Source: an uncultured Prolixibacteraceae bacterium
GTDB lineage: Bacteria > Bacteroidota > Bacteroidia > Bacteroidales > FEN-979
Direction: 5' to 3'
DNA length: 64,000 nucleotides
Assembly: GCA_964449285.1 (NCBI GenBank)
Contig: CAYUZX010000001.1
Coordinates: 67,819-131,818, forward strand
Below the pieces are notes generated by a model. That model made no database searches, was not told the origin of the DNA, and was given only the letters and a program-made list of their open reading frames with translations. Each line of letters opens with the position of its first letter. The stretch's first letter is position 1. This document shows positions 4,331 to 62,778 of this stretch, one piece after another. The position numbers and the translations under genes are program-made.

Positions 4331-4351
4331 TTCGTCCTTCGTCCTTCGTCC
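4331..4351. repeat. Heptamer tandem array ttcgtcc x3 (perfect)
   Basis: Read directly: ttcgtcc at 4331-4337, 4338-4344 and 4345-4351, in the convergent spacer 4288-4370. Confidence 0.9.
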
Positions 4352-4370
4352 CAGGTCAAATGTCTTACGG

Positions 4371-4844
4371 TTAACGTAGTCTGTCGGTTGATTTGACGAG
4401 TTCTTCGTCTTTGCGGATAAAGCGATTGGCTAAAATCAGAAAAACGAGTGAGATCAGGGGGAAGAATATACCAAGTTGATACGAAGGCTCGATCTGGGTC
4501 AGTTTTGTGATCTTACTTGAGTAGATGATAAAAACCAGAACCACAAAGCTGACGTTGAGCAGAATATTGAAGGCAACTAGCCGTAACTGGGTTCTCCTGT
4601 TTTTATATAAAAAGATTGAGGTCAGGGTGAGGATCAAAGACGCTCCTGCAGTAAGCCAGAGTGGTGAGTTAAACCAGATTGAGGTAGTCATTTTCGGGTC
4701 GGGATCCATTGATTTCAGCTCCGTTGCAAAAAGCTTGTAATTTCCATACAGTTCATGATAAAAATCAGCCAGTGGAAAATAGAATACCAGTGCACCGGAG
4801 ATCAGAGCCAGCACAAGGAAGATTGTTTGGATACGTTGAATCAT
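4371..4844 (-). CDS. DUF4293-like four-TM membrane protein
   Basis: 157 aa. MIQRIQTIFLVLALI... start and four hydrophobic segments, typical of the Bacteroidota family. Confidence 0.6.
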   Translation of the reverse strand: MIQRIQTIFLVLALISGALVFYFPLADFYHELYGNYKLFATELKSMDPDPKMTTSIWFNSPLWLTAGASLILTLTSIFLYKNRRTQLRLVAFNILLNVSFVVLVFIIYSSKITKLTQIEPSYQLGIFFPLISLVFLILANRFIRKDEELVKSTDRLR

Positions 4845-4900
4845 GGTTTGTCAATTATTCAAGAGTTTGTTATGCGAAATTAGGAAAGAAACTCAAATTT

Positions 4901-4931
4901 TTTGTTAATTGGCTAAGATTAATTATATTTG
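4901..4931 (+). promoter_or_regulatory. rho promoter: TTTG (4901-4904), 19-nt spacer, TATATTTG (4924-4931)
   Basis: Matches the Bacteroidota -33 TTTG / -7 TAnnTTTG consensus with canonical spacing. Predicts a 5' UTR of about 120 nt. Confidence 0.55.
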
Positions 4932-5059
4932 CACAGAATTTGATTCCCATATTTTTCTCTTTAACCCATTCAAGTTATTTCTTTTACCCATTTCAAGGTT
5001 GAAATTTTCTTTTCCGATAGGTTCTTTCCAAAGACAATACAACACAAAACACACATTCA

Positions 5060-6709
5060 ATGTATGACATTATTTCCCTCGACAGTAAAGAGCTGTCGGA
5101 GATTCGTGAGATTGCGAAATCAATGAACATCCCTAAAGTGGATAAGCTCGAGAAGCAAGAGTTGATTTACAAAATACTTGACCATCAGGCGTTGAATCCT
5201 ACCCAGGATGAAATTGCCAACGAAAAACAAGAGGTAAAACGTGGACGTGGACGCCCACCAAAAGTAGAGCGTCCACGTAAAGAAACTGATAAACAAGGTA
5301 ACAGGCCCAAACCCAGACCTCCACAGGAGACACCGAATAAAGTCTCAAGAGAACAGCCTGTGGTCAAAGCAAAGGATTTTAATAACACTCCCGAAAATCG
5401 CATTTTTGAAACAAAAAATGAGGTCCCCAAGGTTATTGAGCCCCCTATTGATCTGTCGACGGAGACCATGAAAGAAGAGCCTGTAACGAGCAGCGAGAAT
5501 ATACCCGCTCAGCGGCCTGACGATAAAAAACATCGTGAGCAACCACGGAAACATATACCGGAACGTCATCGTGAGGAGTACGCCTTTGAATTTGAGGGTA
5601 TCATCAGCACTGAGGGAGTCCTTGAGATCATGGCCGATGGCTACGGATTTCTTCGCTCCTCAGATTACAACTACCTGAACTCCCCTGATGATGTCTATGT
5701 CTCCCAGTCGCAGATCAAGCTGTTTGGCCTGAAAACCGGCGACACAGTACGTGGCACTATTCGTCCTCCGAAAGAGGGAGAAAAATATTTTCCGTTAATA
5801 AAGGTAGAACTGATCAATGGTAAGAAAGCGGAAGATGTCCGTGACAGGATCCCGTTCGATTTTCTCACACCACTCTTCCCGATGAAGAAATTCAAACTTA
5901 CCGGTCATCCAGATTGCACAGCTTCGACCCGTATCATTGACATGTTTGCACCCATTGGATTCGGTCAACGGGGATTGATTGTTGCACAGCCAAAGACAGG
6001 TAAAACAGTTCTATTGAAAGAGATTGCCAATGCAATCGCTGCCAATCATCCAGATGTCTACCTGATCGTATTATTGATTGATGAAAGACCTGAAGAGGTT
6101 ACAGATATGGCACGCAGTGTGAGGGGTGAAGTGATCTCATCAACGTTTGATGAACCAGCCGAACGCCATACAAAAATAGCCAATATCGTTCTTGAAAAAG
6201 CTAAACGACTGGTTGAGTGCGGACATGATGTGGTGATCCTGCTTGACTCTATTACCCGTCTCGCCCGTGCTTACAACACGGTAGCTCCGGCTTCCGGGAA
6301 GGTATTATCGGGTGGGGTAGAAGCCAATGCACTTCAAAAACCTAAACGCTTCTTTGGTGCTGCACGCCAGATCGAAAATGGCGGATCCCTTACGATTATT
6401 GCTACTGCCTTGACCGACACAGGCTCCAAGATGGACGATGTGATTTTCGAAGAGTTCAAGGGAACGGGAAACATGGAACTTCAGCTTGACAGGAAACTTT
6501 CCAATAAGCGGATCTGGCCGGCTGTTGACATTGTTGCTTCAAGTACTCGTCGCGAAGACCTGCTTCTTGAAAAAGATGTCCTGGGACGTATCTGGATCCT
6601 CCGGAATCATTTGGCCGATATGACACCCCTAGAGGCGATGGAGTTCCTAAAGGAGAGGATGAAATTCACAGATTCCAACGAGGAGTTTCTAATTTCGATG
6701 AACAGTTAA
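5060..6709 (+). CDS. rho: Transcription termination factor Rho with a long N-terminal disordered insertion
   Basis: Rho_N ([15 protein letters not shown]), about 120 aa of K/R/P/E-rich low complexity, a CSD-like RNA-binding domain ([14 protein letters not shown]), Walker A (AQPKTGKT) and the C-terminal ATPase. Confidence 0.95.
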
Positions 6710-6719
6710 AAGGGAAAAG

Positions 6720-6751
6720 CGAAGTAACGAGGTAGCGAAATAACGAAATTT
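6720..6751. repeat. Octamer tandem array cgaagtaa cgaggtag cgaaataa cgaaattt
   Basis: The leading c recurs at 6720, 6728, 6736 and 6744. Lies in the convergent spacer between rho and mpl. Confidence 0.8.
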
Positions 6752-6754
6752 TTA

Positions 6755-8101: not shown

Positions 8102-8208
8102 AGATTCATGATAAAACTCAAAATTACGATTATTTTACATGCCGAAAGTTGCATGTAGTACAGGGAATTTAGTAATTTCACAAATTGATTAGATTTTCTT
8201 AAGGTGCC

Positions 8209-8916: not shown

Positions 8917-8923
8917 CTTGCTA

Positions 8924-9712: not shown

Positions 9713-9722
9713 TCGATATCCT

Positions 9723-11822: not shown

Positions 11823-11825
11823 TGC

Positions 11826-13046: not shown

Positions 13047-13066
13047 TGGGAGATGGATTGCTGTTA

Positions 13067-13159: not shown

Positions 13160-14332
13160 ATGAAAGAGTTATTTCTTCTTTTTATTGTTGGATGGCTTAC
13201 TTCAGCGGTTAGCTTGAATCAGGCTGATGGTCAGGTTCTAACTGGACTTGAGCGAACCGACGAGTATTTACCGATACTCAGGGGGAAACGGATTGGCGTT
13301 GTTGCAAATAATGCTTCTGTGGTTCGAGGTGTTAACACGGTTGACACCCTCATTGCACTGGAGTGTGATGTTGTAAAAATATATTCGCCAGAACACGGAT
13401 TCAGGCGGCAGGTTGAAGCGGGGCTACATTTAGATAACCAGATTGATAGCCTGACAGGAGTTGAAGTGATCTCTCTATATGGGAAAAAACAGAAGCCATC
13501 TCAAGAGGACCTGGAGGGGGTTGATCTTATCGTTTTTGATATCCAGGATGTTGGTGTCAGGTTCTATACTTACATCTCTACTTTGAGTTATGTGATGGAA
13601 GCCTGTGCAGAAAAGGGTATCCCTCTTCTTGTCTTTGACAGACCTAATCCGAATGGTTTTTACATTGACGGGCCAGTGCTCGATTCCCGTTTTTCTTCAT
13701 TTGTCGGGCTTCACCCGGTGCCGGTTGTATATGGAATGACTATTGGCGAGTATGCAAGGATGGTTAACGGTGAAGGATGGTTGAAGGATGGCATTCAATG
13801 CGATTTGGGGATCGTGCCCCTGGTGAACTGGACACATCATACATTTGCCCAGATTCCGGAAGCGCCTTCCCCGAATTTGCCTACGATAAACGCTATCTAC
13901 CTCTATCCGTCACTTTGTTTTTTTGAAGGAACCGATATAAGTATAGGAAGGGGGACGTGTCATCCGTTTGAAGTATTCGGACATCCAGCGATGAAAGGAT
14001 TCGCATTTTCCTTCACTCCTGAGAGTATCCCTGGTAAGAGTCTTCATCCCCCTCATAAGGGTGAATTGTGTCTTGGGTTGGATCTTCGTGAATTCTATAC
14101 AACACATCCTGCCATGTTCGGGCGGATAAACCTAGTCTGGTTGCTGATGGCTTTCAAGGATCTCGGGAGTAGTCCGGATTTTTTTACGGCTTACTTTGAT
14201 AAGCTGGCGGGCACGGATTCCCTGCAGAGACAGATTCTGAACGGATCCACAGAAATGCAAATCCGTCAATCGTGGCAGGACGATATCGAAGCGTTTAAAC
14301 TAGTGAGACAGAAATATTTGCTGTATGAGTGA
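13160..14332 (+). CDS. DUF1343 family protein (NamZ-like exo-beta-N-acetylmuramidase), secreted
   Basis: Signal peptide, then the DUF1343 N-terminus (GLERTDEYLPILRGKRIGVVANNAS), DIQDVGVRFYTYIST and FDRPNPNG. Confidence 0.75.
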   Translation: MKELFLLFIVGWLTSAVSLNQADGQVLTGLERTDEYLPILRGKRIGVVANNASVVRGVNTVDTLIALECDVVKIYSPEHGFRRQVEAGLHLDNQIDSLTGVEVISLYGKKQKPSQEDLEGVDLIVFDIQDVGVRFYTYISTLSYVMEACAEKGIPLLVFDRPNPNGFYIDGPVLDSRFSSFVGLHPVPVVYGMTIGEYARMVNGEGWLKDGIQCDLGIVPLVNWTHHTFAQIPEAPSPNLPTINAIYLYPSLCFFEGTDISIGRGTCHPFEVFGHPAMKGFAFSFTPESIPGKSLHPPHKGELCLGLDLREFYTTHPAMFGRINLVWLLMAFKDLGSSPDFFTAYFDKLAGTDSLQRQILNGSTEMQIRQSWQDDIEAFKLVRQKYLLYE

Positions 14333-18540: not shown

Positions 18541-18568
18541 CGATGCCGGATGCCTGATGCCGGATTTT
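18541..18568. repeat. Heptamer array cgatgcc ggatgcc tgatgcc ggatttt
   Basis: gatgcc recurs at 18543, 18550 and 18557, starting 5 nt after the stop codon. Confidence 0.85.
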
Positions 18569-18593: not shown

Positions 18594-18635
18594 AATTTCG
18601 TAATTCGTAATTCGTAATTCGTAATTCGTAATTGA
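18594..18635. repeat. Heptamer array taattcg x4 perfect, flanked by aatttcg and taattga
   Basis: taattcg at 18601, 18608, 18615 and 18622. Ends 4 nt before the ATG at 18640. Confidence 0.9.
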
Positions 18636-18639: not shown

Positions 18640-19398
18640 ATGTACTGGCAGGTAGCACTCGTTATTCTTGGTTTCATGGTATTGGCCTTCATTGTGGCTT
18701 TACTGATCAAGGACAATTCCATCGTGGATCTTTTCTGGGGACCTGGATTCATCATTGTTACTGCATTCTCACTATCGATGGCTCCCAACCTCGACATTCG
18801 GAAACTCGTTATTGCTTTTCTGGTTTTGATCTGGGGGATGCGGTTGACGATTTATATCTTCCAGAGAAACAGGAGAAAAGGGGAGGATTTCAGGTACAAA
18901 CACTGGCGCGACACATGGAACAATTTTATCCTCAGGAGTTTTTTACAGATATTTCTTCTTCAGGGACTTTTCATGTATATCGTCTCATATCCTATCTGGT
19001 ACATCAACTACAATCCCGGGGAGGTTCTATCCACATTGGATACTGTTGGCCTGGTGATTTTTGGAATCGGATTTATGTTTGAGTCTGTCGGGGACATGCA
19101 GCTCGCCTTTTTTAAACAGAATCCAAAGAATAAAGGGAAACTGATAAATTCCGGATTGTGGAAATACACACGACATCCAAACTATTTCGGGGAAGCTCTT
19201 ATCTGGTGGGGGATCTGGTTTTATGCACTTGGAATCCCTGGTGGTTGGATGACGGTTATCAGCCCTATTTTAATTACCCTGACCCTTCGGTTCGTTTCTG
19301 GAGTTCCGATGCTGGAGAAGAGGCTCAGCGAACATCGTGATTGGGCAGAATATGCCCGGAAGACAGCTCCGTTTGTCCCATTCATTAAGTGGCTTTAG
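18640..19398 (+). CDS. DUF1295 / steroid-5-alpha-reductase-like membrane protein
   Basis: Polytopic, with the C-terminal motif GLWKYTRHPNYFGE typical of this family. Confidence 0.7.
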   Translation: MYWQVALVILGFMVLAFIVALLIKDNSIVDLFWGPGFIIVTAFSLSMAPNLDIRKLVIAFLVLIWGMRLTIYIFQRNRRKGEDFRYKHWRDTWNNFILRSFLQIFLLQGLFMYIVSYPIWYINYNPGEVLSTLDTVGLVIFGIGFMFESVGDMQLAFFKQNPKNKGKLINSGLWKYTRHPNYFGEALIWWGIWFYALGIPGGWMTVISPILITLTLRFVSGVPMLEKRLSEHRDWAEYARKTAPFVPFIKWL

Positions 19399-23038: not shown

Positions 23039-25015
23039 TTAATTTCGGGGTATGGTTATCCGGAAACGGGTACCAACTGATCCCTTTAAAGGGTCCGTAT
23101 TCGATTCGACGGTAATTTTCCCTTGATGCATTTTTACAATGCCATAAACGAGTGGCAGTCCCAACCCGGTTCCTTTTCCCAACTCTTTGGTGGTAAAAAA
23201 CGGGGTAAACAACTTTTCAATGTTTTCAGACGATATACCTACTCCGGTGTCAGAGATAGAGATCCGGATCTCATCGGCAGTATCTTTCAGGAGAAGTGAA
23301 AGGATCCCCCCGTCGGGCATCGCTTCCACGGCGTTTTTCTCCAGGTTTGTTAGCACCTGCATAAATTGGTCCTGATCCACCATGGCTAGCGGGTCGAGCA
23401 TCTCTGAACGGAAGTTCATAGATACATTGTCGCTGATAATCACCGATCGAAGGCTTTTTTTACAGAAGGCTTCGATGTCTGTTTCGGTTTTTTTTACCTG
23501 GTTTTTCCTGGCGAAGTTGAGCAACCCTCCAACGATGTTTTTGCACCTGTTTGTTTGTTCAACGATAAGTTCAATGTCTTTCCGCGCAGGATCCTCCGGG
23601 CCAGACTCCTCCAGGAGGATGTTTGCATACATGGTGATTACCCCAAGTGGGTTATTCAGTTCGTGTGCAATTCCTGCTGATAGTTGCCCCATGCCTGCCA
23701 GTTTTTCAGATTGTTTGAGAGCTTGCCTTGCATTGGCTAGTTTCTCATTTGACAGGTTAAGTTCTTTTACCGAAAGGTGAAGTTTTTCGATGGTATATGG
23801 AAGGCACATCTCACTTTCGGCCAGGCCCTCAACGATGGCAATCGCATGTTCGGTGCAGGACGGATATCCGCAAGCACCGCAGTTCAGGTGATCTTCGGGC
23901 CTGGTTTTCCCCATCTCCAGCAAAATATGATCAATCTCCTCCTTTGTGGGAAGCGGAAGTCTTCTGTCCCGGGGGAAGAATTGTTCGGAGAAATCCAGGC
24001 CCGCGAACTTCCTGACATTTTTTTGCCATTCCAGATGGTCGTATTGATCCAGTTTTTTTTTGGCATAGTTGCTTATTTGAGAACGTCGTGAATATTTCTG
24101 GCTGGGCTTGCTCATCCCCGGCCCCATGATGCATCCTTCACAACTGAGAAGTTCCAGGTGATGCTTCAGTGTCCCGCATTCAAATTCCTGAATGGCTTCT
24201 TTGTAGTTTTCTCTCCCTTCGGCAACAACAATATCTCCCTTGAAAATATCGTCACTGTTGTTTACGGTCTGCAGCATACCCCGGCTTACAGGATAAATGG
24301 CTCCTTTCCCGGCAAGAGGAGGGTCGAAACTGGAAGCCATACCTGGTTTTGGAACTACATTATTACGCTTGAACAGTTCCCTGAGTTCTACATAGGTTAG
24401 TACAGCGTCAACTTCTGTGGATTCAGCTTTTTTTGCGATGCAGGGCCCAATAAAAACTACCTTGGTTTCTGACCCATAAAGCTCACGGACAATCCGGGCG
24501 GTGGCGACCATTGGAGAGGCAACCGGAGCCAATGAAGGAACCAGGTTGGGATGATAATGTTCGATATAGTAGACAATTGCAGGGCAATCACTGGAAATAA
24601 CAGACGGATTTTCCGGATTGTCGAAAAGCTTGTTGTATTCCAGGGAGACCATATCGGCTCCGAATCCTACCTCCACCACATAGTCAAATCCAAGCTTGCG
24701 GATCATCTCTACCAACAAAGTATGGTCAGTGATTTCGTTGAACTCGGCAGGAAAACTCGGCGCTATGCAGGCAGCCACCGATCCGGGTGTACGTAATAGT
24801 TCTTCGGCTTCACCCGTAGTGTCCAGGTAGATTTTTGCTCCCTGACTACACACCTTTACACAATTGCCACAGGCAATGCACCGCTCGTTCATCACTTCAG
24901 CCTGGCCGTTATTGATCCGGATTGCCTTTACCGGGCACTCTCTCACACAGGTGAAACAAACCCTGCACCGGTCTTTCACCGTATATACTAATTGCCGTCT
25001 TGCCTGGTAATTCAT
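23039..25015 (-). CDS. Sensory-type [FeFe]-hydrogenase-like domain fused to a histidine kinase (2x[4Fe-4S] ferredoxin, H-cluster domain, Cx2Cx4Cx16C, HisKA, HATPase_c)
   Basis: Two CxxCxxCxxxCP motifs (aa 17-28, 46-57). H-domain motifs are divergent: L1 SSDCP (canonical TSCCP), L2 GPCIAKKAE, L3 ELLSCEGCIMGPG. Then C379-x2-C-x4-C-x16-C404, H-box AHELNNPL and ATPase boxes (DTGVGI, GTGLGLPL). Confidence 0.8.
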   Translation of the reverse strand: MNYQARRQLVYTVKDRCRVCFTCVRECPVKAIRINNGQAEVMNERCIACGNCVKVCSQGAKIYLDTTGEAEELLRTPGSVAACIAPSFPAEFNEITDHTLLVEMIRKLGFDYVVEVGFGADMVSLEYNKLFDNPENPSVISSDCPAIVYYIEHYHPNLVPSLAPVASPMVATARIVRELYGSETKVVFIGPCIAKKAESTEVDAVLTYVELRELFKRNNVVPKPGMASSFDPPLAGKGAIYPVSRGMLQTVNNSDDIFKGDIVVAEGRENYKEAIQEFECGTLKHHLELLSCEGCIMGPGMSKPSQKYSRRSQISNYAKKKLDQYDHLEWQKNVRKFAGLDFSEQFFPRDRRLPLPTKEEIDHILLEMGKTRPEDHLNCGACGYPSCTEHAIAIVEGLAESEMCLPYTIEKLHLSVKELNLSNEKLANARQALKQSEKLAGMGQLSAGIAHELNNPLGVITMYANILLEESGPEDPARKDIELIVEQTNRCKNIVGGLLNFARKNQVKKTETDIEAFCKKSLRSVIISDNVSMNFRSEMLDPLAMVDQDQFMQVLTNLEKNAVEAMPDGGILSLLLKDTADEIRISISDTGVGISSENIEKLFTPFFTTKELGKGTGLGLPLVYGIVKMHQGKITVESNTDPLKGSVGTRFRITIPRN

Positions 25016-29572: not shown

Positions 29573-29612
29573 GACTTTGTGTACAATTATTATTGTTAAT
29601 AAATTCACAAAG

Positions 29613-29643
29613 CAAAAGTATATCCGGATAATACCCTATACAA
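29613..29643 (-). promoter_or_regulatory. hyd operon promoter: TTG (29643-29641), 20-nt spacer, TACTTTTG (29620-29613)
   Basis: Read on the minus strand; 40 nt upstream of the ATG at 29572. Confidence 0.5.
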
Positions 29644-29689
29644 GGGTAAAACCTGCAGCAGAGGTGCCAGGTAAAAACACCTGTATTGA

Positions 29690-29730
29690 GATGTTAACAT
29701 CAAGATAATCAGTAACAAACAAGCTTGATG
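29690..29730. promoter_or_regulatory. Candidate operator: 12-bp perfect palindrome GATGTTAACATC (29690-29701) overlapping inverted repeat CATCAAG (29698-29704) / CTTGATG (29724-29730)
   Basis: Read directly. Lies about 50-90 nt upstream of the -33 element of the hyd promoter. Confidence 0.4.
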
Positions 29731-29781
29731 TGAAGAAAGGAAGGTTCTCAATTTTTTTTACGATTAAATCGTATTAGATTG

Positions 29782-29841
29782 AGAGACTGTTAAATAAAAT
29801 GCATTTTTTTTAAAAAAAAATGATTAGAGAAGAGAGTCTCT
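29782..29841. promoter_or_regulatory. 60-bp imperfect palindrome centred on T8A9 (29804-29820) with outer arms agagact / agtctct
   Basis: Arms lie at 29782-29788 and 29835-29841. The symmetry centre falls exactly at the T/A junction 29811|29812. Confidence 0.5.
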
Positions 29842-29873
29842 TTCCCGAAGCAGGTATTTTCTGCAGGGTTAAA

Positions 29874-29887
29874 AAGCCTGGAGGCTT
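29874..29887 (-). terminator. Weak intrinsic terminator after the LuxR-type regulator (AAGCC-UCCA-GGCUU followed by UUUAA)
   Basis: 5-bp stem, 4-nt loop and a short U tract on the minus-strand transcript, 27 nt after the stop at 29914. Confidence 0.35.
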
Positions 29888-29913
29888 AACAAAAGGAGGG
29901 GGTATAAACAGTA

Positions 29914-34792: not shown

Positions 34793-34803
34793 GACGTGTG
34801 AGG

Positions 34804-34838
34804 AGGGAGAAGGGAGAAGGGAGAAGGGAGAAGGAAAT
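34804..34838. repeat. Heptamer array agggaga x4 perfect, then aggaaat
   Basis: Units at 34804, 34811, 34818, 34825 and 34832, preceded by the degenerate units cgaggga agtaaga cgtgtga (34781-34801). Confidence 0.9.
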
Positions 34839-34845
34839 GAAAACA

Positions 34846-34873
34846 ATCTGGCATCTGGCATCTCGCATCTGAT
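34846..34873. repeat. Heptamer array atctggc atctggc atctcgc atctgat
   Basis: Units at 34846, 34853, 34860 and 34867. Abuts the stop codon of the rhomboid gene (34873-34875). Confidence 0.85.
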
Positions 34874-39430: not shown

Positions 39431-39438
39431 TATCTTTG
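39431..39438 (+). promoter_or_regulatory. -7 box TATCTTTG upstream of tkt-N
   Basis: Exact TAnnTTTG. It overlaps the track's TTG start (39436), which argues for the ATG at 39475. Confidence 0.45.
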
Positions 39439-39474
39439 AAACGTAAGGTTAATTATTTAAATATATCATTTTCA

Positions 39475-40320
39475 ATGTTATCTACCAAAGATTTATCAAA
39501 CATTGCATCACAGGTCAGAAGGGATATCATCCGTATGGTAAATGGTGCATCATCAGGCCATCCGGGTGGATCGCTTGGGGCGGCCGACTTTCTGGTAGCA
39601 CTCTATTTTGCTTTCATGAAGCCTGACCCCAATAAATTCTCTATTGACGGAACTAATGAGGATATCTTTTTCCTTTCGAATGGCCATATTTCTCCAGCAT
39701 GGTATAGTGTTCTTGCACGGTATGGCTATTTTAAACTGGCTGAACTTGAAACATTCAGGAAGCTTGATACCAGGTTACAGGGTCACCCTTCAATCCTGGA
39801 TGAGACACCTGGAGTACGAGTGGCATCCGGATCCCTGGGGCAGGGATTATCTGTAGCACTGGGTGCAGCCATCAGCAAAAAACTGAATGGCGATCCCCGA
39901 ACGGTTTACTGCCTTACGGGAGATGGAGAGTTGCAGGAAGGACAGAACTGGGAAGCACTGATGTATGGTGCCGCCAAAGGAGTTGATAACATAATTGCTA
40001 TCGTCGATTACAATAAAAAACAGATAGATGGCCAGGTTGAAAAGGTCCTTTCCCTGGGAGATTTGAGAGCCAAACTGGAGTCGTTTGACTGGCTTGTAAT
40101 GGAGATGAACGGGAACGACATGGCTGAAATTCTGGAACAGTTGACAGCTGCAAAACAACAATTAAACCGAGGAAAACCCGTTATACTCATCATGCACACC
40201 CAGATGGGTTATGGTGTGGACTTTATGCTCGGTAATCATGAGTGGCACGGTGTACCCCCTAACGATGAACAGGCAGAAAGGGCTCTTGCACAGTTGGAAG
40301 AGACGATGGGAGACTTTTAG
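39475..40320 (+). CDS. tkt: Transketolase, N-terminal (TPP-binding PP) subunit
   Basis: GHPGGSLG and GDGELQEGQNWEA motifs. 281 aa, typical of a split transketolase. Confidence 0.9.
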   Translation: MLSTKDLSNIASQVRRDIIRMVNGASSGHPGGSLGAADFLVALYFAFMKPDPNKFSIDGTNEDIFFLSNGHISPAWYSVLARYGYFKLAELETFRKLDTRLQGHPSILDETPGVRVASGSLGQGLSVALGAAISKKLNGDPRTVYCLTGDGELQEGQNWEALMYGAAKGVDNIIAIVDYNKKQIDGQVEKVLSLGDLRAKLESFDWLVMEMNGNDMAEILEQLTAAKQQLNRGKPVILIMHTQMGYGVDFMLGNHEWHGVPPNDEQAERALAQLEETMGDF

Positions 40321-40360: not shown

Positions 40361-40388
40361 TAACGAATGAGGAATTACGAATGATAAA
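40361..40388. repeat. Heptamer array taacgaa tgaggaa ttacgaa tgataaa overlapping the VWA start codon
   Basis: Period 7, read directly. The ATG at 40381 lies across units 3 and 4. Confidence 0.65.
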
Positions 40389-41751
40389 AAAGCCTGTCAC
40401 GGTGCTGTTGTTCCTTTTGTCTTGTGTCATCTATGGCATCGCACAGTCACAGACTGCGAAGGAGATGGATATTCCCAAACCTGTGACGAGGATCCTCTTT
40501 GTGTTTGACGCATCGGAAAGCATGGCTGAGCACTGGCAGAGTGATACGAAATACAGGACTGCCGTTAAGGTGCTTTCTGGAATCCTCGACAGTTTGCAGG
40601 GAAACAAGAACCTTGAGCTCGGGCTGCGGGTTTACGGCCCGAAAAGGGCTCCAGGCCCCGATTGTGAGGCCTCTTTTATCATGGTACCGTTCGGTACGGA
40701 TAATTTCTTGTCAATCAAGTCTGTTCTTGGCGGATTGAGTCCTGGTGGGACTACGCCTATTGCCTTTTCACTTGAGCAGGCAGCTTCGGATTTTACTCCA
40801 TGCATCAGTTGCAGGAATGTAGTCATCCTTATAACTGATGGACTGGAGGCTTGTGGAGGGGATCCCTGCCAGGTTTCAAAGAGCCTTCAGCAAAAAGGTA
40901 TCTTCCTGAGGCCTTTTATCGTAGGGATTGGGGAGGACATACTGACCCAGTTCAATTGCATGGGAAATTACTTCAATGCTGCAAATGAAAAAGACTACAA
41001 GCGTGCCCTTGAAACGATTGTTGCCACAACATTTAAAGAGGCTTCAGCCCAGATAAACCTGTTGGACCGGTTGGGTAATCCTACGCAAACAGATGTTCAT
41101 GTTACACTATACAACACTGTTACAGGTACTGCAGCATACAGCTTCATTCACACATTAAACAAATATGGGCTCCCCGATACGCTTAAGCTGGATCCGTTGG
41201 TGACGTATGATGTGGTTGTCCAAACAATACCTCCGCTGAGAAAAGAAGCGGTTTGGATTGAGCCTGGAAAACATAATGCCATTTCTCTCGATGCGCGTCA
41301 GGGCTTCCTCAGTTTTATCAGTGAAGGGGATCAGATAGTCTCATGCATCGTTCGCAGGAGTGGGACAGGTGAGGCCATCCATGTTCAGCCCAGCAACCGT
41401 AAAGAGAAGTATCTGGCTGGAAGCTACGATATCACGGTATTGACCATGCCAAGGATGAATTTCAACAATGTGGAGATAGAGGCAGATATCTTAACCCAAC
41501 TCAGGATACCTCTAACAGGGATTGTCAACCTAAAACATACGGTGCCAGTAGTTGGTTCAATCTATATGGATACAGGAGGAGAGTTGTTGTGGGTCGATCA
41601 TCTCCTGCCGGATCAGATAGATGAAACAAGGCGCTTTCAGCCAGGGAGTTATGTTGCTGTCTATCGTTTGGAATCATCAGCCCTGCAGGAGGATACAAAG
41701 GAGAAAAGGTTTTCGGTTGAGGCTGGAAGAAAGATAGAAGTAGAATTATAG
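40381..41751 (+). CDS. Secreted von Willebrand factor A domain protein
   Basis: Signal peptide, MIDAS DASESM, ...GGTTPIA..., ILITDG and about 230 aa of C-terminal beta-rich region. Confidence 0.75.
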   Translation: MIKKPVTVLLFLLSCVIYGIAQSQTAKEMDIPKPVTRILFVFDASESMAEHWQSDTKYRTAVKVLSGILDSLQGNKNLELGLRVYGPKRAPGPDCEASFIMVPFGTDNFLSIKSVLGGLSPGGTTPIAFSLEQAASDFTPCISCRNVVILITDGLEACGGDPCQVSKSLQQKGIFLRPFIVGIGEDILTQFNCMGNYFNAANEKDYKRALETIVATTFKEASAQINLLDRLGNPTQTDVHVTLYNTVTGTAAYSFIHTLNKYGLPDTLKLDPLVTYDVVVQTIPPLRKEAVWIEPGKHNAISLDARQGFLSFISEGDQIVSCIVRRSGTGEAIHVQPSNRKEKYLAGSYDITVLTMPRMNFNNVEIEADILTQLRIPLTGIVNLKHTVPVVGSIYMDTGGELLWVDHLLPDQIDETRRFQPGSYVAVYRLESSALQEDTKEKRFSVEAGRKIEVEL

Positions 41752-41757
41752 GGCAGG

Positions 41758-41792
41758 GTAGGATGTAAGATGTAAAATGTAAAAAGTAAAAT
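41758..41792. repeat. Heptamer array gtaggat gtaagat gtaaaat gtaaaaa gtaaaat
   Basis: Five units at 41758-41792, filling the spacer between the VWA stop (41751) and the tkt-C ATG (41796). Confidence 0.9.
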
Positions 41793-41795
41793 CCA

Positions 41796-42758
41796 ATGAT
41801 TAATTACACTAACCTCGGTTCCAAAGATACACGGTCCGGCTTCGGAGAGGCGCTTGTGGAACTTGGCAGGGAGAATGAGAACATCGTAGCTCTTTGTGCA
41901 GATCTTACCGGATCGTTGAAGATGAATGATTTTGCCAGGGAGTTCCCTGAACGGTTTTTTGAGGTGGGAATTGCGGAGGCTAACATGATCGGGCTTGCAG
42001 CTGGAATGACTATCGGAGGGAAGATTCCATTTACGGGCACCTTCGCCAATTTCTCAACCGCCAGGGTGTACGACCAGATCAGGCAATCGGTTGCCTATTC
42101 GAAGAAGAATGTAAAGATCTGTGCATCTCATGCCGGCGTAACACTGGGAGAGGACGGGGCGACACATCAGAGCCTGGAAGACATAGGAATGATGAAGATG
42201 CTCCCGTTTATGACCGTGATCAATCCATGCGACTTCAATCAGACCAAAGCAGCCACTAAAGCGATAGCTGCTCATATTGGCCCTGTTTACCTTCGGTTTG
42301 GCCGCCCCAAGGTAGCTAACTTCACGCCACCGGATCAGGAGTTTGTGATAGGAAAGGCTCTGATGCTGGAGGAGGGGAGTGATGTAACGATCTTTGCGAC
42401 CGGACACCTGGTTTGGAAAGCGCTGGAAGCTTCCAGGATACTTTTTGAAGAAGGCATCCATGCTGAAGTGATCAATATCCACACAATCAAACCGCTCGAT
42501 AACGAAGCGGTATTAGCTTCTGTGAAGAAAACGGGGTGTGTAGTTTCAGCGGAGGAGCACATGCGTAATGGTGGATTGGGCGACAGTATCGCTCAACTCC
42601 TGGTACATCATCATCCGGTACCGATGGAGATGGTGGCAGTAGACGATAAATTTGGGGAAAGCGGAAAACCTGAAGAGCTTCTTGCACGATACGGACTCGA
42701 TACACCGGATATCGTAAATGCTGTCCACAAGGTGATCTCCCGAAAAGCTGATCAATGA
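41796..42758 (+). CDS. tkt: Transketolase, C-terminal (pyrimidine-binding) subunit
   Basis: FFEVGIAEANMIG and GEDGATHQSLEDI motifs. Confidence 0.9.
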   Translation: MINYTNLGSKDTRSGFGEALVELGRENENIVALCADLTGSLKMNDFAREFPERFFEVGIAEANMIGLAAGMTIGGKIPFTGTFANFSTARVYDQIRQSVAYSKKNVKICASHAGVTLGEDGATHQSLEDIGMMKMLPFMTVINPCDFNQTKAATKAIAAHIGPVYLRFGRPKVANFTPPDQEFVIGKALMLEEGSDVTIFATGHLVWKALEASRILFEEGIHAEVINIHTIKPLDNEAVLASVKKTGCVVSAEEHMRNGGLGDSIAQLLVHHHPVPMEMVAVDDKFGESGKPEELLARYGLDTPDIVNAVHKVISRKADQ

Positions 42759-48384: not shown

Positions 48385-48999
48385 TTGCTGACAGATCCAT
48401 TCATTATTCTGGGAACCCAGACAACCATCCTGGAGATTTTTGCTATCCTGTGCGGTCTCTCCAGTGTATGGTTCATGAAGAAGGAGAATATTCTTGTATA
48501 CCCACTTGGCATCATCAATGTATTGATTTACGTATATATCTGCTATACCTCCAAGTTATATGCCTATGCCGGAATCAATGTGTTTTATGCAGTGATGAGT
48601 GCGTATGGTTGGTATAATTGGTTGCGGAAAAACGAACAGGATGAACGGATCCGGGTAACTCATCTTACAGTAAAAATGATTTTGGTCTATACGTTGCTAA
48701 TCATTGGATTCTTCTTCCTGGTAAGATATTTTCTTGACCATTTTACCGATAGTGAAATACCATCATGGGATGCGTTAACCACAGCTATTTATATCATTGC
48801 CATGTGGTTGCTGGCTCAGAAAAAGATCGAACACTGGATTCTCTGGATCATCGGAGATGTGATCTCAATCGGGATGTTTGCCTGGCTGAATCTCTACTTC
48901 AGTTCCTTCCAATTCCTGGTTTTTACTATAATTGCTATTTTTGGGTTTATTGAATGGAGAGGGAAGCTGGCTACGAGGGTCGAGGGACGAAGGACGTAA
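48385..48999 (+). CDS. pnuC: Nicotinamide riboside transporter PnuC
   Basis: ILEIFAILCGLSSVWFMKKENILVYPLGIIN and later W-rich TM segments. The last 9 codons (ATRVEGRRT) are encoded by the heptamer array. Confidence 0.85.
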   Translation: MLTDPFIILGTQTTILEIFAILCGLSSVWFMKKENILVYPLGIINVLIYVYICYTSKLYAYAGINVFYAVMSAYGWYNWLRKNEQDERIRVTHLTVKMILVYTLLIIGFFFLVRYFLDHFTDSEIPSWDALTTAIYIIAMWLLAQKKIEHWILWIIGDVISIGMFAWLNLYFSSFQFLVFTIIAIFGFIEWRGKLATRVEGRRT

Positions 49000-49043
49000 G
49001 ACGTTAGACGTTAGACGTGGAACTGCCCACTGCCCACTTTGAT
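48974..49043. repeat. Ten-unit graded heptamer array cgagggt cgaggga cgaagga cgtaaga cgttaga cgttaga cgtggaa ctgccca ctgccca ctttgat
   Basis: Read directly at exact 7-nt register. Contains the pnuC stop (48997-48999). Confidence 0.9.
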
Positions 49044-49583: not shown

Positions 49584-49646
49584 TTTGATGCCGGATGACG
49601 GATGATTCCTCATTCGTAATTTGTAATTTTGCCCCATGCCTGCCCA
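49584..49646. repeat. Composite heptamer array tttgatg ccggatg acggatg attcctc attcgta atttgta attttgc cccatgc ctgccca
   Basis: Nine units in register. Spans the whole spacer and the start codon (49636) of the glycosyltransferase. Confidence 0.8.
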
Positions 49647-54582: not shown

Positions 54583-54605
54583 ACTTCGCTGCAGGCCGTT
54601 TCCGT

Positions 54606-54613
54606 TATCTTTG
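54606..54613 (+). promoter_or_regulatory. -7 box TATCTTTG upstream of parE
   Basis: Exact TAnnTTTG, 22 nt before the ATG at 54636. It lies inside the track's extended ORF. Confidence 0.45.
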
Positions 54614-54635
54614 CACCGCAGAAAAAAAAAGAAGC

Positions 54636-58583: not shown

Positions 58584-58585
58584 GA

Positions 58586-58951
58586 CTAATCGATCATTCC
58601 CCAAAAGGGCATGGTAGCAAGAATTCCGAATATGACCAGAATGATGATCACAAAAAAGATGATGGCGACCGTAAGGCCAATAAATGCACAGATTCGTCCC
58701 GCTTTCAGGTTGTTAAAGGAACTCAGCGTATATCCAGAACTGTTGGAGGTGTAGAGGGCCATATCCTTAGCTGATAAAACAAGGGCTACAATGCTTAGGA
58801 TTACGCCAATGATCGAAACATACCAGATGCTGAATACGATGGAGAGGATTCCGAGGATCAAGACTGATGTTGAGTTGGGGAGATTTTGCTGCGTTGGTTG
58901 TGAGAACAGGTTATCCTGACCAAGTGCAGGATGTGCATGTTGTTCTTCCAT
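58586..58951 (-). CDS. Small membrane protein with two or three TM segments (DUF4190-like)
   Basis: 121 aa: a polar N-terminus followed by hydrophobic segments. Confidence 0.5.
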   Translation of the reverse strand: MEEQHAHPALGQDNLFSQPTQQNLPNSTSVLILGILSIVFSIWYVSIIGVILSIVALVLSAKDMALYTSNSSGYTLSSFNNLKAGRICAFIGLTVAIIFFVIIILVIFGILATMPFWGMID

Positions 58952-59005
58952 AATGCTGAATTTTTGGTGAAAAGCAAAGGTAAAGGTAGGAATTTTTTAA
59001 ACACT

Positions 59006-59956: not shown

Positions 59957-59962
59957 CTTTAT

Positions 59963-59990
59963 TAATTCGTAATTCCTAATTCTTAATTCG
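59963..59990. repeat. Heptamer array taattcg taattcc taattct taattcg
   Basis: Four units in exact register. Contains the mltG stop (59976-59978) and its last four codons. Confidence 0.9.
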
Positions 59991-61016
59991 ATTAAGCGCC
60001 TCCTGATACCGCTTTGCATTTCTGTTGTGTTCAATCAGGGTAGAGGAAAAAATATGGTATCCAGAGAAATCCTCTTTGGCACAAAAGTACATATACTGAT
60101 GATTCCGGTAGTTTAACACTGCATCGATCGAGGAGATTGATGGGAGACAGATCGGGCCCGGAGGAAATCCAGGGTTTTTATAGGTATTGTAAGGGGAAAT
60201 GATCTCTTTGTGTAAGTCAAGGACTCGTTTGATCGTGAAATCATTCCATGCATAGATCAGGGTTGGGTCAGCCTGAAGAGGCCATTTTTTGTGAAGGCGG
60301 TTGATATAGACTCCAGCAATCATAGGTTTTTCATCATTCTTCGAAGTCTCTTTTTCAATGATTGACGCAAGTATCACCACTTCAGGGATGCTTAAACCGA
60401 TTGAGTCAGCTTTCTTTGCTCGATTTCCCTGCCAGAATTTCGTGGATTCTGTTGCCATGCGAGCTACAAACTCTTCCGCGGTAGAGTTCCACCACATCTC
60501 ATACGTGTTGGGAATGGTCATCGTGAAAAGGGTCAATGGAGTGATATTGTATTGAGTGAGGAAATTTTCATCTGAAAAAAGTTTCAGCAAACTCAGGCTA
60601 TCTGCTTCGATTTGGCGGGCGACCTTTCCTGCGAGTTCGTCACGCTTCCTGATACTATGAAACGAAACCTTAACAGGAGTTTGCAGCCCCCGGATGAGCA
60701 TATTAACCAGCTCATGGGCACTCATCCTGTTCTTAAGCAAATACCTGCCGGGCTTGAAGTATTGATCGTATTTTCCTAACTCAACGTAGTTCTCAAAGAG
60801 TTTTTTCTTACTGACGTAATCATGACTATACAGGCTGTCTTTCACCTGATTGAACCCTCCCCCGGAAGGAATATATAACCAGGCATGGTCCAGATCTCCC
60901 AGGTTAATGACTGCGCTGTGGATTCTGAAATAGAGACGTTCAACACCCACTAACAGGAAAATAAGGATAAGGAATGGAGTGATACGCAAAAGAAGAATCT
61001 GAAGGAATAGACGCAT
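59976..61016 (-). CDS. mltG: Endolytic murein transglycosylase MltG (YceG-like)
   Basis: N-terminal TM segment, ILASIIEKE catalytic region and NTYKNPGFPPGPI. Confidence 0.85.
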   Translation of the reverse strand: MRLFLQILLLRITPFLILIFLLVGVERLYFRIHSAVINLGDLDHAWLYIPSGGGFNQVKDSLYSHDYVSKKKLFENYVELGKYDQYFKPGRYLLKNRMSAHELVNMLIRGLQTPVKVSFHSIRKRDELAGKVARQIEADSLSLLKLFSDENFLTQYNITPLTLFTMTIPNTYEMWWNSTAEEFVARMATESTKFWQGNRAKKADSIGLSIPEVVILASIIEKETSKNDEKPMIAGVYINRLHKKWPLQADPTLIYAWNDFTIKRVLDLHKEIISPYNTYKNPGFPPGPICLPSISSIDAVLNYRNHQYMYFCAKEDFSGYHIFSSTLIEHNRNAKRYQEALNRIKN

Positions 61017-61021
61017 AAGAG

Positions 61022-61558
61022 TTACAGAATCCGTTGGTACATATATTCATCCAGCCACTCTTCACCGGCATTAATCCATTGTTTTTTCTGTCCGCAACGG
61101 ATGAAACTATTCCTTTCAAATAAGCGGATACTGACGAGATTATCTGATGAAATGTTACAAAATAGTTGATTCAGGTGAAGGCCTTCAGAGGCATACCGGA
61201 CCAAGGTATTCAAGGCTTCTGCAGCATACCCTTTTCCTCTGAACTCCTTGGCGATCATAATCCCCACGCCGGCCCGAAGATGCACCGGGTCAAATTCGAA
61301 CAAGTCGATGGTCCCGATAGTAACAGAAGCAGCCTCTTCCTTTGGCAGAGAGATCATGAGCCTAAGTTGTTGGGCAGAAAAAATATCCCGTTTGGCATTC
61401 AGTACATATTCCTCAATCTCAAAGCGTGAAAACGGAGTAATGGTGTTACTTACTTTCCATACGGAGATATCGTTCTCCCATTCAAGCAGCAGGTCAACAT
61501 CTGAAGGTTCAACTGCTCGGAGGATGAGGTTAAGGCCGGTTAATAGGTCATTGGTCAT
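61022..61558 (-). CDS. GNAT-family N-acetyltransferase
   Basis: RGKGYAAEAL acetyl-CoA motif. ATG at 61558 (MTNDLLTG) is preferred; the upstream 12 codons are array-encoded. Confidence 0.8.
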   Translation of the reverse strand: MTNDLLTGLNLILRAVEPSDVDLLLEWENDISVWKVSNTITPFSRFEIEEYVLNAKRDIFSAQQLRLMISLPKEEAASVTIGTIDLFEFDPVHLRAGVGIMIAKEFRGKGYAAEALNTLVRYASEGLHLNQLFCNISSDNLVSIRLFERNSFIRCGQKKQWINAGEEWLDEYMYQRIL

Positions 61559-61565
61559 AGTTGTT

Positions 61566-61651
61566 GGTTGCTGGTTGCTGGTTTCAGGTTTCAAATTTCA
61601 AGTTTATGTCTGCTGAATTTCGTATTTCCGTATTTCATATTTCTACATTTC
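61566..61651. repeat. Period 7/8 array ggttgct ggttgct ggtttca ggtttca aatttca agtttat gtctgct gaatttc gtatttc cgtatttc atatttc tacatttc
   Basis: Twelve units fill the entire dapF-GNAT spacer and include the dapF stop (61643-61645). Confidence 0.85.
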
Positions 61652-62485
61652 CATCTCTCCTGAAAACACAAACTCAGCCGGGCCTTCCAGCCAGATATTC
61701 GTGAATGCTCCATTTTCAAACTGGAAGGAGACGGCCAACTGACCGCCAAGAGTTTCAATTTTAATGTTGGATGCCTGAGGAGTTTGTTTCGTCACTTTGT
61801 TCCTTGCAATGACATGATTGCCCCCTGCAAACTGCGAACTACCAACTGCGAGAGCCGCTGCCGTCACCCCGGTCCCGCAGGAGAGGGTCTCATCCTCCAC
61901 ACCCCGTTCATAGGTTCTGACAAAAAGCCCGTTATCCATTTTCTCTACAAAATCGACGTTGATTCCATCAGGAGCATATTGTGAATCATACCGAAGCTTT
62001 CGTCCTTCAATAACGACATCTATCTCTCTCACATGATCCTTGAAGAGAACCAGGTGGGGAGAGCCGGTATCAATTTGAAATTCGAAATTTGGAATGCGGT
62101 ATGCATCTGGAGAGACATCCGACATTCGTAATTTTACCAATGTTATATTCCCTTCTTCATTCAAAACTTCAGCCGTATGGTCCCCATCGATGGCCAGGAA
62201 TGTGGCATGTTTATCAAGAATCCCCAGCGAATTTGCGAATGCAGTAATACACCTGCCACCGTTTCCGCACATGGTGCTCTCTTTTCCATCGGAGTTATAG
62301 TACTTCATGCCGAAATCATATCCAGTCTCGGAGATAAGGAATATGAGCCCATCGGCTCCGATACCGAAATGACGGTCACAGAGATGTACAATATCCCCGA
62401 TTGACAAGTGGATACTGGCTTCACGGTTGTCGATGAGGATGAAGTCGTTCCCTGTGCCGTGGTATTTGGAAAAAGTCAGTTTCAT
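61643..62485 (-). CDS. dapF: Diaminopimelate epimerase
   Basis: GTGNDFILID and the two catalytic Cys motifs MCGNGGRC and LSCGTGVTA. Confidence 0.9.
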   Translation of the reverse strand: MKLTFSKYHGTGNDFILIDNREASIHLSIGDIVHLCDRHFGIGADGLIFLISETGYDFGMKYYNSDGKESTMCGNGGRCITAFANSLGILDKHATFLAIDGDHTAEVLNEEGNITLVKLRMSDVSPDAYRIPNFEFQIDTGSPHLVLFKDHVREIDVVIEGRKLRYDSQYAPDGINVDFVEKMDNGLFVRTYERGVEDETLSCGTGVTAAALAVGSSQFAGGNHVIARNKVTKQTPQASNIKIETLGGQLAVSFQFENGAFTNIWLEGPAEFVFSGEMEM

Positions 62486-62490
62486 TGCTG

Positions 62491-62516
62491 CAAATCTAAC
62501 GAATTAAATAATTTTG
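62491..62516. promoter_or_regulatory. Divergent -7 boxes: TAGATTTG (minus, 62498-62491, 5 nt from the dapF ATG) and TAATTTTG (plus, 62509-62516, 10 nt from the ATG at 62527)
   Basis: Both are exact TAnnTTTG matches. Confidence 0.45.
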
Positions 62517-62526
62517 CAGCGAATAA

Positions 62527-62703
62527 ATGCAGATGAAAGGCGATCCAAGGCGCTACACGATCCTTGATGAGTTGAACATAACGTTTGACCAGATCAGTTT
62601 CCATCCCTGTGTCAATACGGCTTCGTTAGTGGTCCGGTATCCCGACTTTGAGAAATTTCTCAAGTATTGTGGGAATACCTATGAGTATTTGGAGCTGTAC
62701 TGA
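62527..62703 (+). CDS. Small hypothetical protein, 58 aa, below the ORF-track cutoff
   Basis: My translation: MQMKGDPRRYTILDELNITFDQISFHPCVNTASLVVRYPDFEKFLKYCGNTYEYLELY. Balanced composition, its own -7 box, and it fills an otherwise empty 280-nt spacer. Confidence 0.4.
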   Translation: MQMKGDPRRYTILDELNITFDQISFHPCVNTASLVVRYPDFEKFLKYCGNTYEYLELY

Positions 62704-62708
62704 ATAGT

Positions 62709-62778
62709 GAAGTATCGAAGCGAAATAAACGGATATCCATAATCTCGAATTGCATATAGCCAATCGGTTAACCGTTAA
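62709..62778. repeat. Degenerate period-7 tract (tgaagta tcgaagc gaaataa acggata tccataa tctcgaa ttgcata tagccaa tcggtta accgtta)
   Basis: 7 of 10 units start with t and 9 of 10 end with a. Shares agcgaaataa with the array at 6720. Ends in the palindrome cggttaaccg (62765-62774) over the trmJ-like stop. Confidence 0.45.

Follow-up and report, generated by a model that had tools for sequence, protein, structure and literature searches.

Short tandemly repeated repetitive (STRR) sequences, reportedly described by Mazel et al. in 1990, are heptamers of heterocystous cyanobacteria with the words CCCCAGT, TTGGTCA and CAACAGT. What makes a genome prone to such heptamers has been a standing question ever since. 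Here we describe arrays of the same period in a 64,000-nt stretch of DNA from an uncultured Prolixibacteraceae bacterium (assembly GCA_964449285.1, contig CAYUZX010000001.1, positions 67,819 to 131,818 of the forward strand), which we call the window, and in its relatives.

Two lines of published work lie close to these arrays. TAACTGA direct repeats were found in marine Beggiatoaceae, cyanobacteria and five Bacteroidetes, where they are present in 2-40 copies, mainly in intergenic DNA and often shortly before start codons, and contigs tend to end at them (MacGregor, 2015; PMC4679880). For Gramella and Aequorivita, the study noted that these spacers also contain "other heptamer direct repeats". 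According to its summary of the survey by Mrazek, Guo and Shah (2007), long simple sequence repeats (SSRs) have units of 5-11 nt, with the heptanucleotide class as the commonest; scattered lineages are SSR-rich, and polymerase slippage with a contact of ~7 nt was proposed as the cause. Among the SSR rows of the excerpt of Table 3 from Huang and Mrazek (2014; PMC4060949), the 7n3 class scores highest.

Heptanucleotide arrays in the window

The arrays of the window are real heptanucleotide tandem repeats. Tandem Repeats Finder reported period-7 arrays at 4330, 18542, 18597, 34800, 34846, 41758, 48973-49038, 49587, 59963, 61560-61651 and 61825, and one period-8 array at 6720. The total comes to 13 period-7 arrays (two of them period-7/8) in 10 spacers, covering 447 nt of the ~3,570 nt of intergenic DNA. 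An earlier note, made by reading the window, had counted at least 12 array-bearing spacers; the arrays hold up, and the number becomes 13 arrays in 10 spacers. As in other SSRs, at least three short units stand head-to-tail, with copy numbers from Tandem Repeats Finder of 3.1-5.3 at 75-100% matches and up to nine units in the compound arrays. The individual features are the following.

4330-4351: (CTTCGTC)x3.1 array in the convergent spacer 4288-4370, found by Tandem Repeats Finder and as a lag-7 run
6720-6749: period-8 array (CGAAATAA)x3.8, 77% matches, weak Tandem Repeats Finder score of 32
18542-18565: (GATGCCG)x3.4 array beginning 6 nt past the stop of a Dak2/DegV gene, found by Tandem Repeats Finder
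18597-18633: perfect (TTCGTAA)x5.3 array ending 6 nt ahead of the ATG at 18640, polymorphic in copy number
34800-34834: (GGGAGAA/GAGAAGG)x5 array in the convergent spacer 34793-34872, polymorphic in copy number
34846-34871: (ATCTGGC)x3.7 array in the same convergent spacer, 34793-34872, found by Tandem Repeats Finder
40361-40381: degenerate array ACGAATG AGGAATT ACGAATG abutting the ATG at 40381, below the threshold of Tandem Repeats Finder
41758-41792: (GTAAGAT to ATGTAAA)x5 array filling the spacer 41752-41795, found by Tandem Repeats Finder and as a lag-7 run
48973-49038: compound nine-unit array in a single register, in the 3' end of a PnuC-like gene and the following spacer, from Tandem Repeats Finder and unit listing
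49587-49635: compound array that takes up the spacer as far as the ATG at 49636, from Tandem Repeats Finder and unit listing
59963-59990: (TAATTCG)x4 array spanning the YceG/MltG stop and the spacer to the DUF2279 gene, found by Tandem Repeats Finder
61560-61605: array GTTGTTG GTTGCTG GTTGCTG GTTTCAG GTTTCAA ATTTCAA at the dapF|GNAT junction, from Tandem Repeats Finder and unit listing
61617-61651: period 7-8 array (ATTTCGT / ATTTCCGT) immediately past the dapF stop, found by Tandem Repeats Finder
61825-61851, minus strand: degenerate period-7 tract inside dapF (61643-62485), 75% matches by Tandem Repeats Finder

The array at 48973 consists of the units ACGAGGG TCGAGGG ACGAAGG ACGTAAG ACGTTAG ACGTTAG ACGTGGA ACTGCCC ACTGCCC, and that at 49587 of GATGCCG GATGACG GATGATT CCTCATT CGTAATT TGTAATT TTGCCCC. 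Listed unit by unit in this way, the arrays form in-register gradients, in agreement with the unit drift described in the earlier note. The tract which it had placed at 40361 is visible on reading the sequence as a three-unit degenerate array, with 13-mers in common with 49605 and 59965, and no array is detectable at 62709, where it had seen a weaker tract. The words that it listed as shared between loci were all found at their positions, apart from one that lies at 40370 instead of 40369. By word distance, ATCTGGC of the array at 34846 is one substitution off the reverse complement of GATGCCG.

As for the surrounding genes, the array at 6720 occupies the convergent spacer directly after the rho gene (5060-6709; Rho Pfam domains). 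The arrays at 48973 and 59963 extend into 3' coding ends and provide the stop codons, the former including the final codons and stop (48997-48999) of the PnuC-like gene and the latter reaching into the YceG/MltG gene (59976-61016, minus strand). Heptamer arrays also lie in both spacers flanking a 456-aa gene (40381-41751; weak VWA match), which stands between the split transketolase halves 39436-40320 and 41796-42758; conceivably, arrays mark a site where a gene was inserted.

The signal is specific to period 7. In the intergenic DNA of the window, base identity at lag 7 is 0.309 compared with ~0.265 at adjacent lags, and it is likewise elevated at lags 14 and 21; the lag-7 peak is absent from the coding DNA of the window. 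Nine lag-7 runs score at least 10, while block dinucleotide shuffles of the window contain 0.15 on average and never more than 1, an excess over composition as known from long SSRs. This comparison with shuffled sequence, proposed in the earlier note and run here on the window, shows a clear lag-7 excess. At the other lags from 4 to 12 there are zero runs of this score in the window, save two at lag 11. The lag-11 signal comes from two exact two-copy 11-nt direct repeats at 13771-13791 and 63609-63629 (TGAAGGATGGT and ACAATTCGGAG), which are the sole non-7 lag signal in the window.

Distribution among relatives

One clade of uncultured anaerobic Bacteroidales has heptamer arrays as a genome-wide trait. 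The nearest genomes are metagenome-assembled genomes (MAGs) that carry the labels Bacteroidales, Bacteroidetes or "Prolixibacteraceae" and come from places such as the Black Sea and Powell Lake; their YceG/MltG proteins are 65-81% identical to that of the window. Our clade set comprised the window, eight MAG loci from a genome scan (L020-L027) and one locus reached via a DapF homologue (L046), i.e., 10 loci with 213 kb. All 10 loci carry period-7 arrays, the density being 2.3-5.4 per 10 kb in the relatives compared with 1.4 in the window, and the longest array having 17 units. The 213 kb contain 65 lag-7 runs, against 13, 6, 4 and 1 at lags 8, 9, 10 and 6, respectively; period-8 arrays are thus the second commonest class. 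Nine more metagenome loci of the clade show the same richness, except for the short locus L339 with none. Outside the clade, there are zero lag-7 arrays in three outgroup Bacteroidota loci (L043, L044 and L045; 62 kb) and likewise zero in L344. A metagenome scan for relatives of intermediate divergence recovered only the same relatives at 65-81% identity.

The outgroup locus L045 is syntenic with the window (LytTR-HisK-LiaF ... DapF-GNAT-YceG-DUF2279-MpPF26-YjeF-HD-ParE). In L045, the DapF gene overlaps that of GNAT, which in turn abuts YceG, and just 2 nt separate LytTR from HisK. The DapF|GNAT and LytTR|HisK junctions of the clade measure 20-200 nt and consist mostly of arrays, and the GNAT|YceG junction is short (5-11 nt) and has none. 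Because genes of L045 overlap or abut where the clade has arrays, the arrays are additions to a compact ancestral layout and not replacements of regulatory DNA.

Changes by whole units between close strains

We aligned 19 metagenome contigs (from JGI 3300028176 and others, ENA ERZ272489xx and Logan SRR84372xx) to the window, ~200 kb in total at 99.6-100% identity. These alignments contain just two indels, of -7 and -14 nt, both in (TTCGTAA)5 at 18597, which has five copies in the window and L001-L003, four in L005 and three in L006. A further look-up found four or three copies of (GGGAGAA)n at 34800: L034 and L037 are one unit short, and the spacer measures 73 nt in these two contigs compared with 80 nt in the window, L033, L035 and L038. 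The comparison of copy number across strains, for which the earlier note had asked, thus revealed two perfect arrays that vary by whole units. Such 7-nt steps are the classical signature of strand slippage, also known from long SSRs. The imperfect arrays show no copy-number variation among the near-identical contigs; the copy number of the array at 4330, for instance, is unchanged in four other contigs. Contigs L004 and L007 break within the array at 18597, and L008 and L036 within the array at 34800, as expected if the population is heterogeneous in unit number.

An assembly artefact was considered and rejected. Independent samples and independent assemblers yielded contigs with identical arrays, the arrays are found in 10 genomes, and their lengths (at most 46 nt for simple arrays, 66 nt for the compound tract) are below those of typical short reads.

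Placement in spacers and coding DNA

The orthologous spacers PHP|LytTR, LytTR|HisK, DapF|GNAT, YceG|DUF2279 and ParE|PSsynt carry arrays in most clade species, with words and lengths that vary between species. The YceG|DUF2279 junction also has arrays of related words in L021, L027 and L024 and of a different word, (AAGAGGT)17, in L020, and the dapF|GNAT junction, at which the two genes overlap in L045, has arrays in six of seven clade genomes.

Promoters are kept free of arrays. The divergent LiaF|SpoU spacer (134-162 nt) has kept its sequence and is array-free in all clade species compared, and the same holds, in all seven species, for the tandem DUF2279|MpPF26 spacer, in which a promoter-like TACCTTTACCTTTG motif is conserved. 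Arrays are also missing from very short coupled junctions across the clade comparison. Within the window, arrays are present in 0 of 9 divergent spacers versus 8 of 24 spacers containing a gene 3' end (p = 0.07); with the relatives included, the fractions are 1/26 versus 26/82 (p = 0.0035, from crude gene calls). The absence of arrays from divergent spacers, as claimed in the earlier note, therefore holds for the window and is broken once in 26 spacers when relatives are added. The TAnnTTTG boxes that it had reported there were found in 10 of 11 divergent spacers checked; TAnnTTTG is the -7 promoter element of Bacteroidetes. In the window, the DUF2279|MpPF26 spacer (58952-59005) shows a conserved promoter-like AAAAAAT..CTACCTTTACCTTTG within a co-directional gene run.

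The arrays have also invaded coding DNA. The following dapF orthologues contain in-frame arrays.

L027, 8331-9329: dapF orthologue with in-frame arrays
L024, 6902-7876: dapF orthologue with in-frame arrays
L021, 8427-9293: dapF orthologue with in-frame arrays
L020, 8425-9335: dapF orthologue with in-frame arrays

The protein encoded in L027 has 332 aa compared with 280 aa in the window. Its gene contains (TCGTCCT)4 in one loop and (GCAGTCC)12 past the catalytic CGTGVTAAALA motif, the latter comprising 84 nt and encoding AVRSPQS repeats, and the C-terminal tail is formed by (ACGAGGG)4. In a homologue search, the length of DapF was 260-265 aa in ordinary Bacteroidota versus 270-332 aa in the ~20 closest homologues. 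The variable insertions of the clade are located in the same two loops, with the heptapeptide repeats SFVLRPS, ENRKSKI, AVRSPQS and SQLTSHV. Going by the DapF alignments and the DNA of L027 and L020, the tract at 61825-61851 of the window is a decayed remnant of the insertion in the second loop. L020 has a stop and a frame change inside its second-loop array, either as a genuine variant or through an assembly error. The earlier note had confined the arrays to spacers with a gene 3' end, which can no longer be upheld: arrays lie in frame inside dapF of relatives, and the promoter-bearing tandem DUF2279|MpPF26 spacer has none. Both observations indicate that the rule is exclusion from constrained DNA and not association with 3' ends.

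The spacer upstream of dapF in L021, L023, L024, L026 and L027 contains an inverted-repeat element of ~80-100 nt (e.g., L023 579-683) of the form AGAACACTGAT ... ATCAGTGTTC, with CTGAT/ATCAG words in its interior. In the window, this place is taken instead by a 56-aa open reading frame (ORF) on the opposite strand (62533-62703).

Structure and orientation

The spacers with arrays fold no better than shuffled sequences, with z-scores from -1.65 to +1.52 that are mostly positive. They lack the dyad symmetry of intrinsic terminators and repetitive extragenic palindromic (REP) elements, as the earlier note had concluded. It was equally right that the arrays are not of the clustered regularly interspaced short palindromic repeat (CRISPR) type, in which repeats of ~23-50 nt are split by unique spacers; the units here have 7-8 nt and directly adjoin each other. 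Hairpin-plus-T terminator-like sites between 33 and 52 kb are not enriched (19 versus 16.9 expected), and Rfam has no match anywhere in the window. The word AATTCGT reads in the sense direction at 18597 and 49605 but antisense at 40363 and 59963, and the ACGAAGG word class likewise takes both orientations relative to transcription. Being unstructured and without preferred orientation, the arrays do not look like terminators, and we rejected a terminator or REP reading on account of the missing RNA structure.

Origin of the arrays

We think it probable that the arrays are slippage-driven heptanucleotide SSRs of the STRR and long-SSR kind, filtered by selection, and not a new kind of element. 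Among the roles offered in the earlier note, slippage-generated filler fits best. Whole 7-nt units would be gained or lost by strand slippage in replication or repair, and point mutation of the units would create the in-register word gradients. Selection would then purge arrays from promoters and most coding DNA, so that they would accumulate after stops, between co-transcribed genes and, in 21-nt multiples, in the surface loops and the tails of proteins. The arrays would not need to have any function. The period specificity, the unit-step polymorphism, the limitation to the clade, the entry into coding DNA and the avoidance of promoter DNA are shown by the data; that slippage is the enzymatic cause and that the arrays are neutral is what we infer. 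The compound arrays in L020, L024 and L026 also hold one register as their units drift, which fits local duplication followed by point mutation. Local seeding is indicated by the arrays ahead of the GNAT start in L027 and L026, which are multiplied copies of the native start region CCAATGACCAA found as a single copy in relatives.

The words recur between loci and species, which supports the shared-word family of the earlier note once the words are clustered across the clade. AATTACG-class arrays are present in six loci and AAGGACG-class arrays in five, and further words recur too. The class ACGAAGG/TCCTTCG, to which the array at 4330 belongs, reappears in five relatives elsewhere in their sequence, and the class ATCCGGC of the array at 18542 also in L021, L026 and L343. 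A literature search for the heptamer words themselves gave no match.

Slippage with selection leaves the period of 7 and the small recurring vocabulary unaccounted for, and several results weigh against it. Identical canonical words are shared by 51 array pairs versus 3.0 for letter-shuffled words, although part of this excess is due to orthologous positions. Within the same genome, at distances of >1 kb, seven word pairs differ by at most one position versus 2.9 expected, a number matched by 3 of 200 shuffles. Purely local seeding does not predict such a non-random vocabulary. One loop of dapF has two unrelated word families depending on the sublineage, the TCGTCCT type and the CGAAAAT type, and both are used at other sites as well. 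Arrays are kept at the same junctions across species with just 65-81% YceG identity, a long time for neutral repeats. The spacer-type statistics were built on crude ORF-based gene calls. Finally, (AATTCGT)3 occurs in 57 stretches of IMG/VR at 29-66% GC, versus 4 and 7 for composition-matched control heptamers. These viral or prophage contigs, which mostly contain single arrays, are listed here with examples.

L167-L217: AATTCGT arrays in IMG/VR viral or prophage contigs
L178, 5825-5899: example of these arrays
L190, 1488-1562: example of these arrays
L185, 4782-4857: example of these arrays

Six IMG/VR loci have inverted pairs of AATTCGT arrays at most 80 nt apart, and the inspected pairs (L178, L190 and L185) form long hairpins between co-directional phage genes. 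Contig L186 carries AATTCGT as well as TTGGTCA-type arrays, and its DUF2213 protein has relatives from Nostoc and Coleofasciculaceae. Arrays with an ACGA-core pattern are widespread at all GC contents among the IMG/VR matches listed. For (TAACTGA)n there are 107 stretches, which are almost single-word (loci L229 onward); their orientation towards the next gene is biased 89:20, and a gap of 21-30 nt to its start is favoured. AATTCGT arrays have no such bias (25:19 before starts, 38:27 after stops). No TAACTGA doublets are present in the window or the 10 clade loci. A universal preference for TCCTTCG was rejected, (TCCTTCG)3 having five IMG/VR matches versus seven for the control.

The vocabulary could have arisen if words were seeded non-locally, by ectopic template switching, gene conversion or a dedicated templated or mobile system, with slippage merely expanding them; the vocabulary would then be handed down and dispersed instead of arising locally. 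The same words at unrelated loci, in different species and inside dapF point in this direction, together with the two word families in one dapF loop, the AATTCGT arrays in ~50 unrelated viral or prophage contigs, including the Nostoc-related prophage with its neighbouring TTGGTCA-type arrays, and the equally widespread TAACTGA arrays. However, we saw neither a candidate enzyme nor terminal repeats nor target-site duplications, at least one array family comes plainly from local sequence (the GNAT start region), in-register drift means that words are interconvertible by point mutation, and TCCTTCG, the second commonest word of the clade, is not in excess in IMG/VR. Non-local seeding is unlikely, if worth keeping in view. 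It is rather unlikely that AATTCGT, TAACTGA, TTGGTCA and the ACGA-core words constitute a cross-phylum vocabulary, recurring in array form among unrelated bacteria, phages and prophages and planted at new sites including protein loops, which would imply an undiscovered seeding mechanism or a conserved factor. If this were true, random local slippage would be insufficient, and templated insertion, array-to-array template switching or a recognising factor would have to be invoked.

A different proposal is that the arrays are functional cis-elements, namely multivalent sites for RNA- or DNA-binding proteins that tune downstream translation or mRNA stability; candidate binders are Csp/S1-type translational regulators, as proposed for the TAACTGA repeats, or a nucleoid protein. 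In many arrays, the distance from the array end to the following start codon is just 0-10 nt (18597, 40361, 41758 and 49587), the same junctions hold arrays in most clade members, the vocabulary is restricted, and the lack of structure is what one expects of single-strand binding sites. The orientation and distance bias of TAACTGA in IMG/VR implies that some heptamer repeats do behave like functional sites. The clade words, on the other hand, occur in both orientations, like AATTCGT in IMG/VR, one junction can differ entirely in array sequence and copy number from species to species, the syntenic outgroup L045 does without arrays and has overlapping genes, and the same words stand inside coding loops, which makes a cis-acting function quite unlikely. 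Arrays acting as termination or 3'-end signals in place of intrinsic terminators, another role suggested by the earlier note, would match their position after stop codons in convergent and tandem spacers; since the region shows no excess of hairpin-plus-T sites, termination might require other signals. Such signals are very improbable here, given the lack of dyad symmetry with z-scores mostly at or above 0, the lack of a consistent strand or C-rich bias, and the location of arrays inside dapF and between genes that overlap in the outgroup and are hence probably co-transcribed. The role is at odds with the unstructured spacers, the counts of hairpin-plus-T sites and the words running in both orientations. 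Slippage followed by selection is the explanation that we prefer.

Implications

The clade, whose habitat is anoxic lake and Black Sea water, adds to the small number of lineages in which saturation with heptanucleotide repeats is known. The array-free syntenic outgroup makes the trait tractable, since gene content compared across this boundary could reveal what renders a genome heptamer-prone. The sharp limits of the clade, the arrays within the reading frame of a housekeeping gene and a vocabulary partly common to several phyla add to its interest. The cosmopolitan AATTCGT and the orientation-biased TAACTGA suggest that the term "heptamer repeats" covers neutral and functional cases. In practice, metagenome assemblies break at the arrays, gene starts and stops are called at shifted positions, and conserved enzymes acquire heptapeptide repeats (DapF with 270-332 aa versus ~262 aa); frameshifts are also possible in the gene models of MAGs.

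Other features of the window

The 305-nt spacer 29609-29913 (minus strand, between two minus-strand genes) has a minimum free energy of -68.1 versus -48.8 for shuffled sequences (z = -5.35) and lacks a match in Rfam; it may represent a structured RNA or leader that has not been described before. The gene at 23039-25015 (minus strand) encodes a 658-aa protein with ferredoxin, [FeFe]-hydrogenase large-subunit, HisKA and HATPase_c domains and adjoins a hydrogenase/NADH-dehydrogenase-like cluster and response regulators. The protein looks like a hydrogenase-like sensor kinase.

Comparison with known repeat systems

The phase-variation SSRs of host-adapted pathogens have units of 1-5 nt in promoters or 5' coding regions of surface-antigen genes, where a change in unit number switches expression. 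The clade arrays resemble them in that unit numbers differ between close strains. Unlike phase-variation SSRs, their units have 7 nt, and they appear to be kept from promoters, being absent from the divergent promoter spacers of the window, and lie after and between housekeeping genes; in L020, however, the dapF frame is broken within an array, by a variant or an assembly error.

The TAACTGA repeats (MacGregor, 2015; PMC4679880) share with the clade heptamers the mostly intergenic location, the frequent position before starts and the contigs breaking inside. The TAACTGA system uses a single word, and related heptamers are rarely repeated (PMC4679880), whereas the clade has dozens of words. Several window arrays abut start codons, yet the same word is used both ways (18597 and 49605 versus 40363 and 59963). 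With heptamer direct repeats reported from five Bacteroidetes (PMC4679880), the statement in the earlier note that no described Bacteroidota element resembles the arrays does not stand. The ten richest genomes of the survey by Mrazek et al. (2007), as listed in the summary in PMC4679880, include no Bacteroidota. With its density of 3-5 arrays per 10 kb, its words shared between loci and its arrays in frame in a housekeeping enzyme, the clade exceeds what that summary describes for the survey.

The likeness is closest in kind to the cyanobacterial STRRs, and differs from them in host and in words. The host clade belongs to Bacteroidota and not to heterocystous cyanobacteria, and its main words are ACGAATT, ACGAAGG, ACGAGGG, GAGACGT, GAGAGGT, GGGCAGT/GGACTGC and GATGCCG. 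Of the classical STRR words, the clade has one exact TTGGTCA doublet (L027) and one TTGGTCA-consensus array (L336), with no CCCCAGT or CAACAGT doublets; the clade word GCAGTCC is one substitution from a rotation of CCCCAGT. A link is provided by AATTCGT, the commonest word of the clade, which is also arrayed in the Nostoc-related prophage contig beside TTGGTCA-type arrays. Like STRRs, the clade arrays are tandem heptamers with several words per genome at many dispersed, mostly intergenic loci, and they are a lineage-wide trait without an assigned function. With recurring words dispersed in 65 arrays over 213 kb and zero arrays in the outgroups, the STRR analogy drawn in the earlier note is sound: both are multi-word heptamers dispersed across a lineage.

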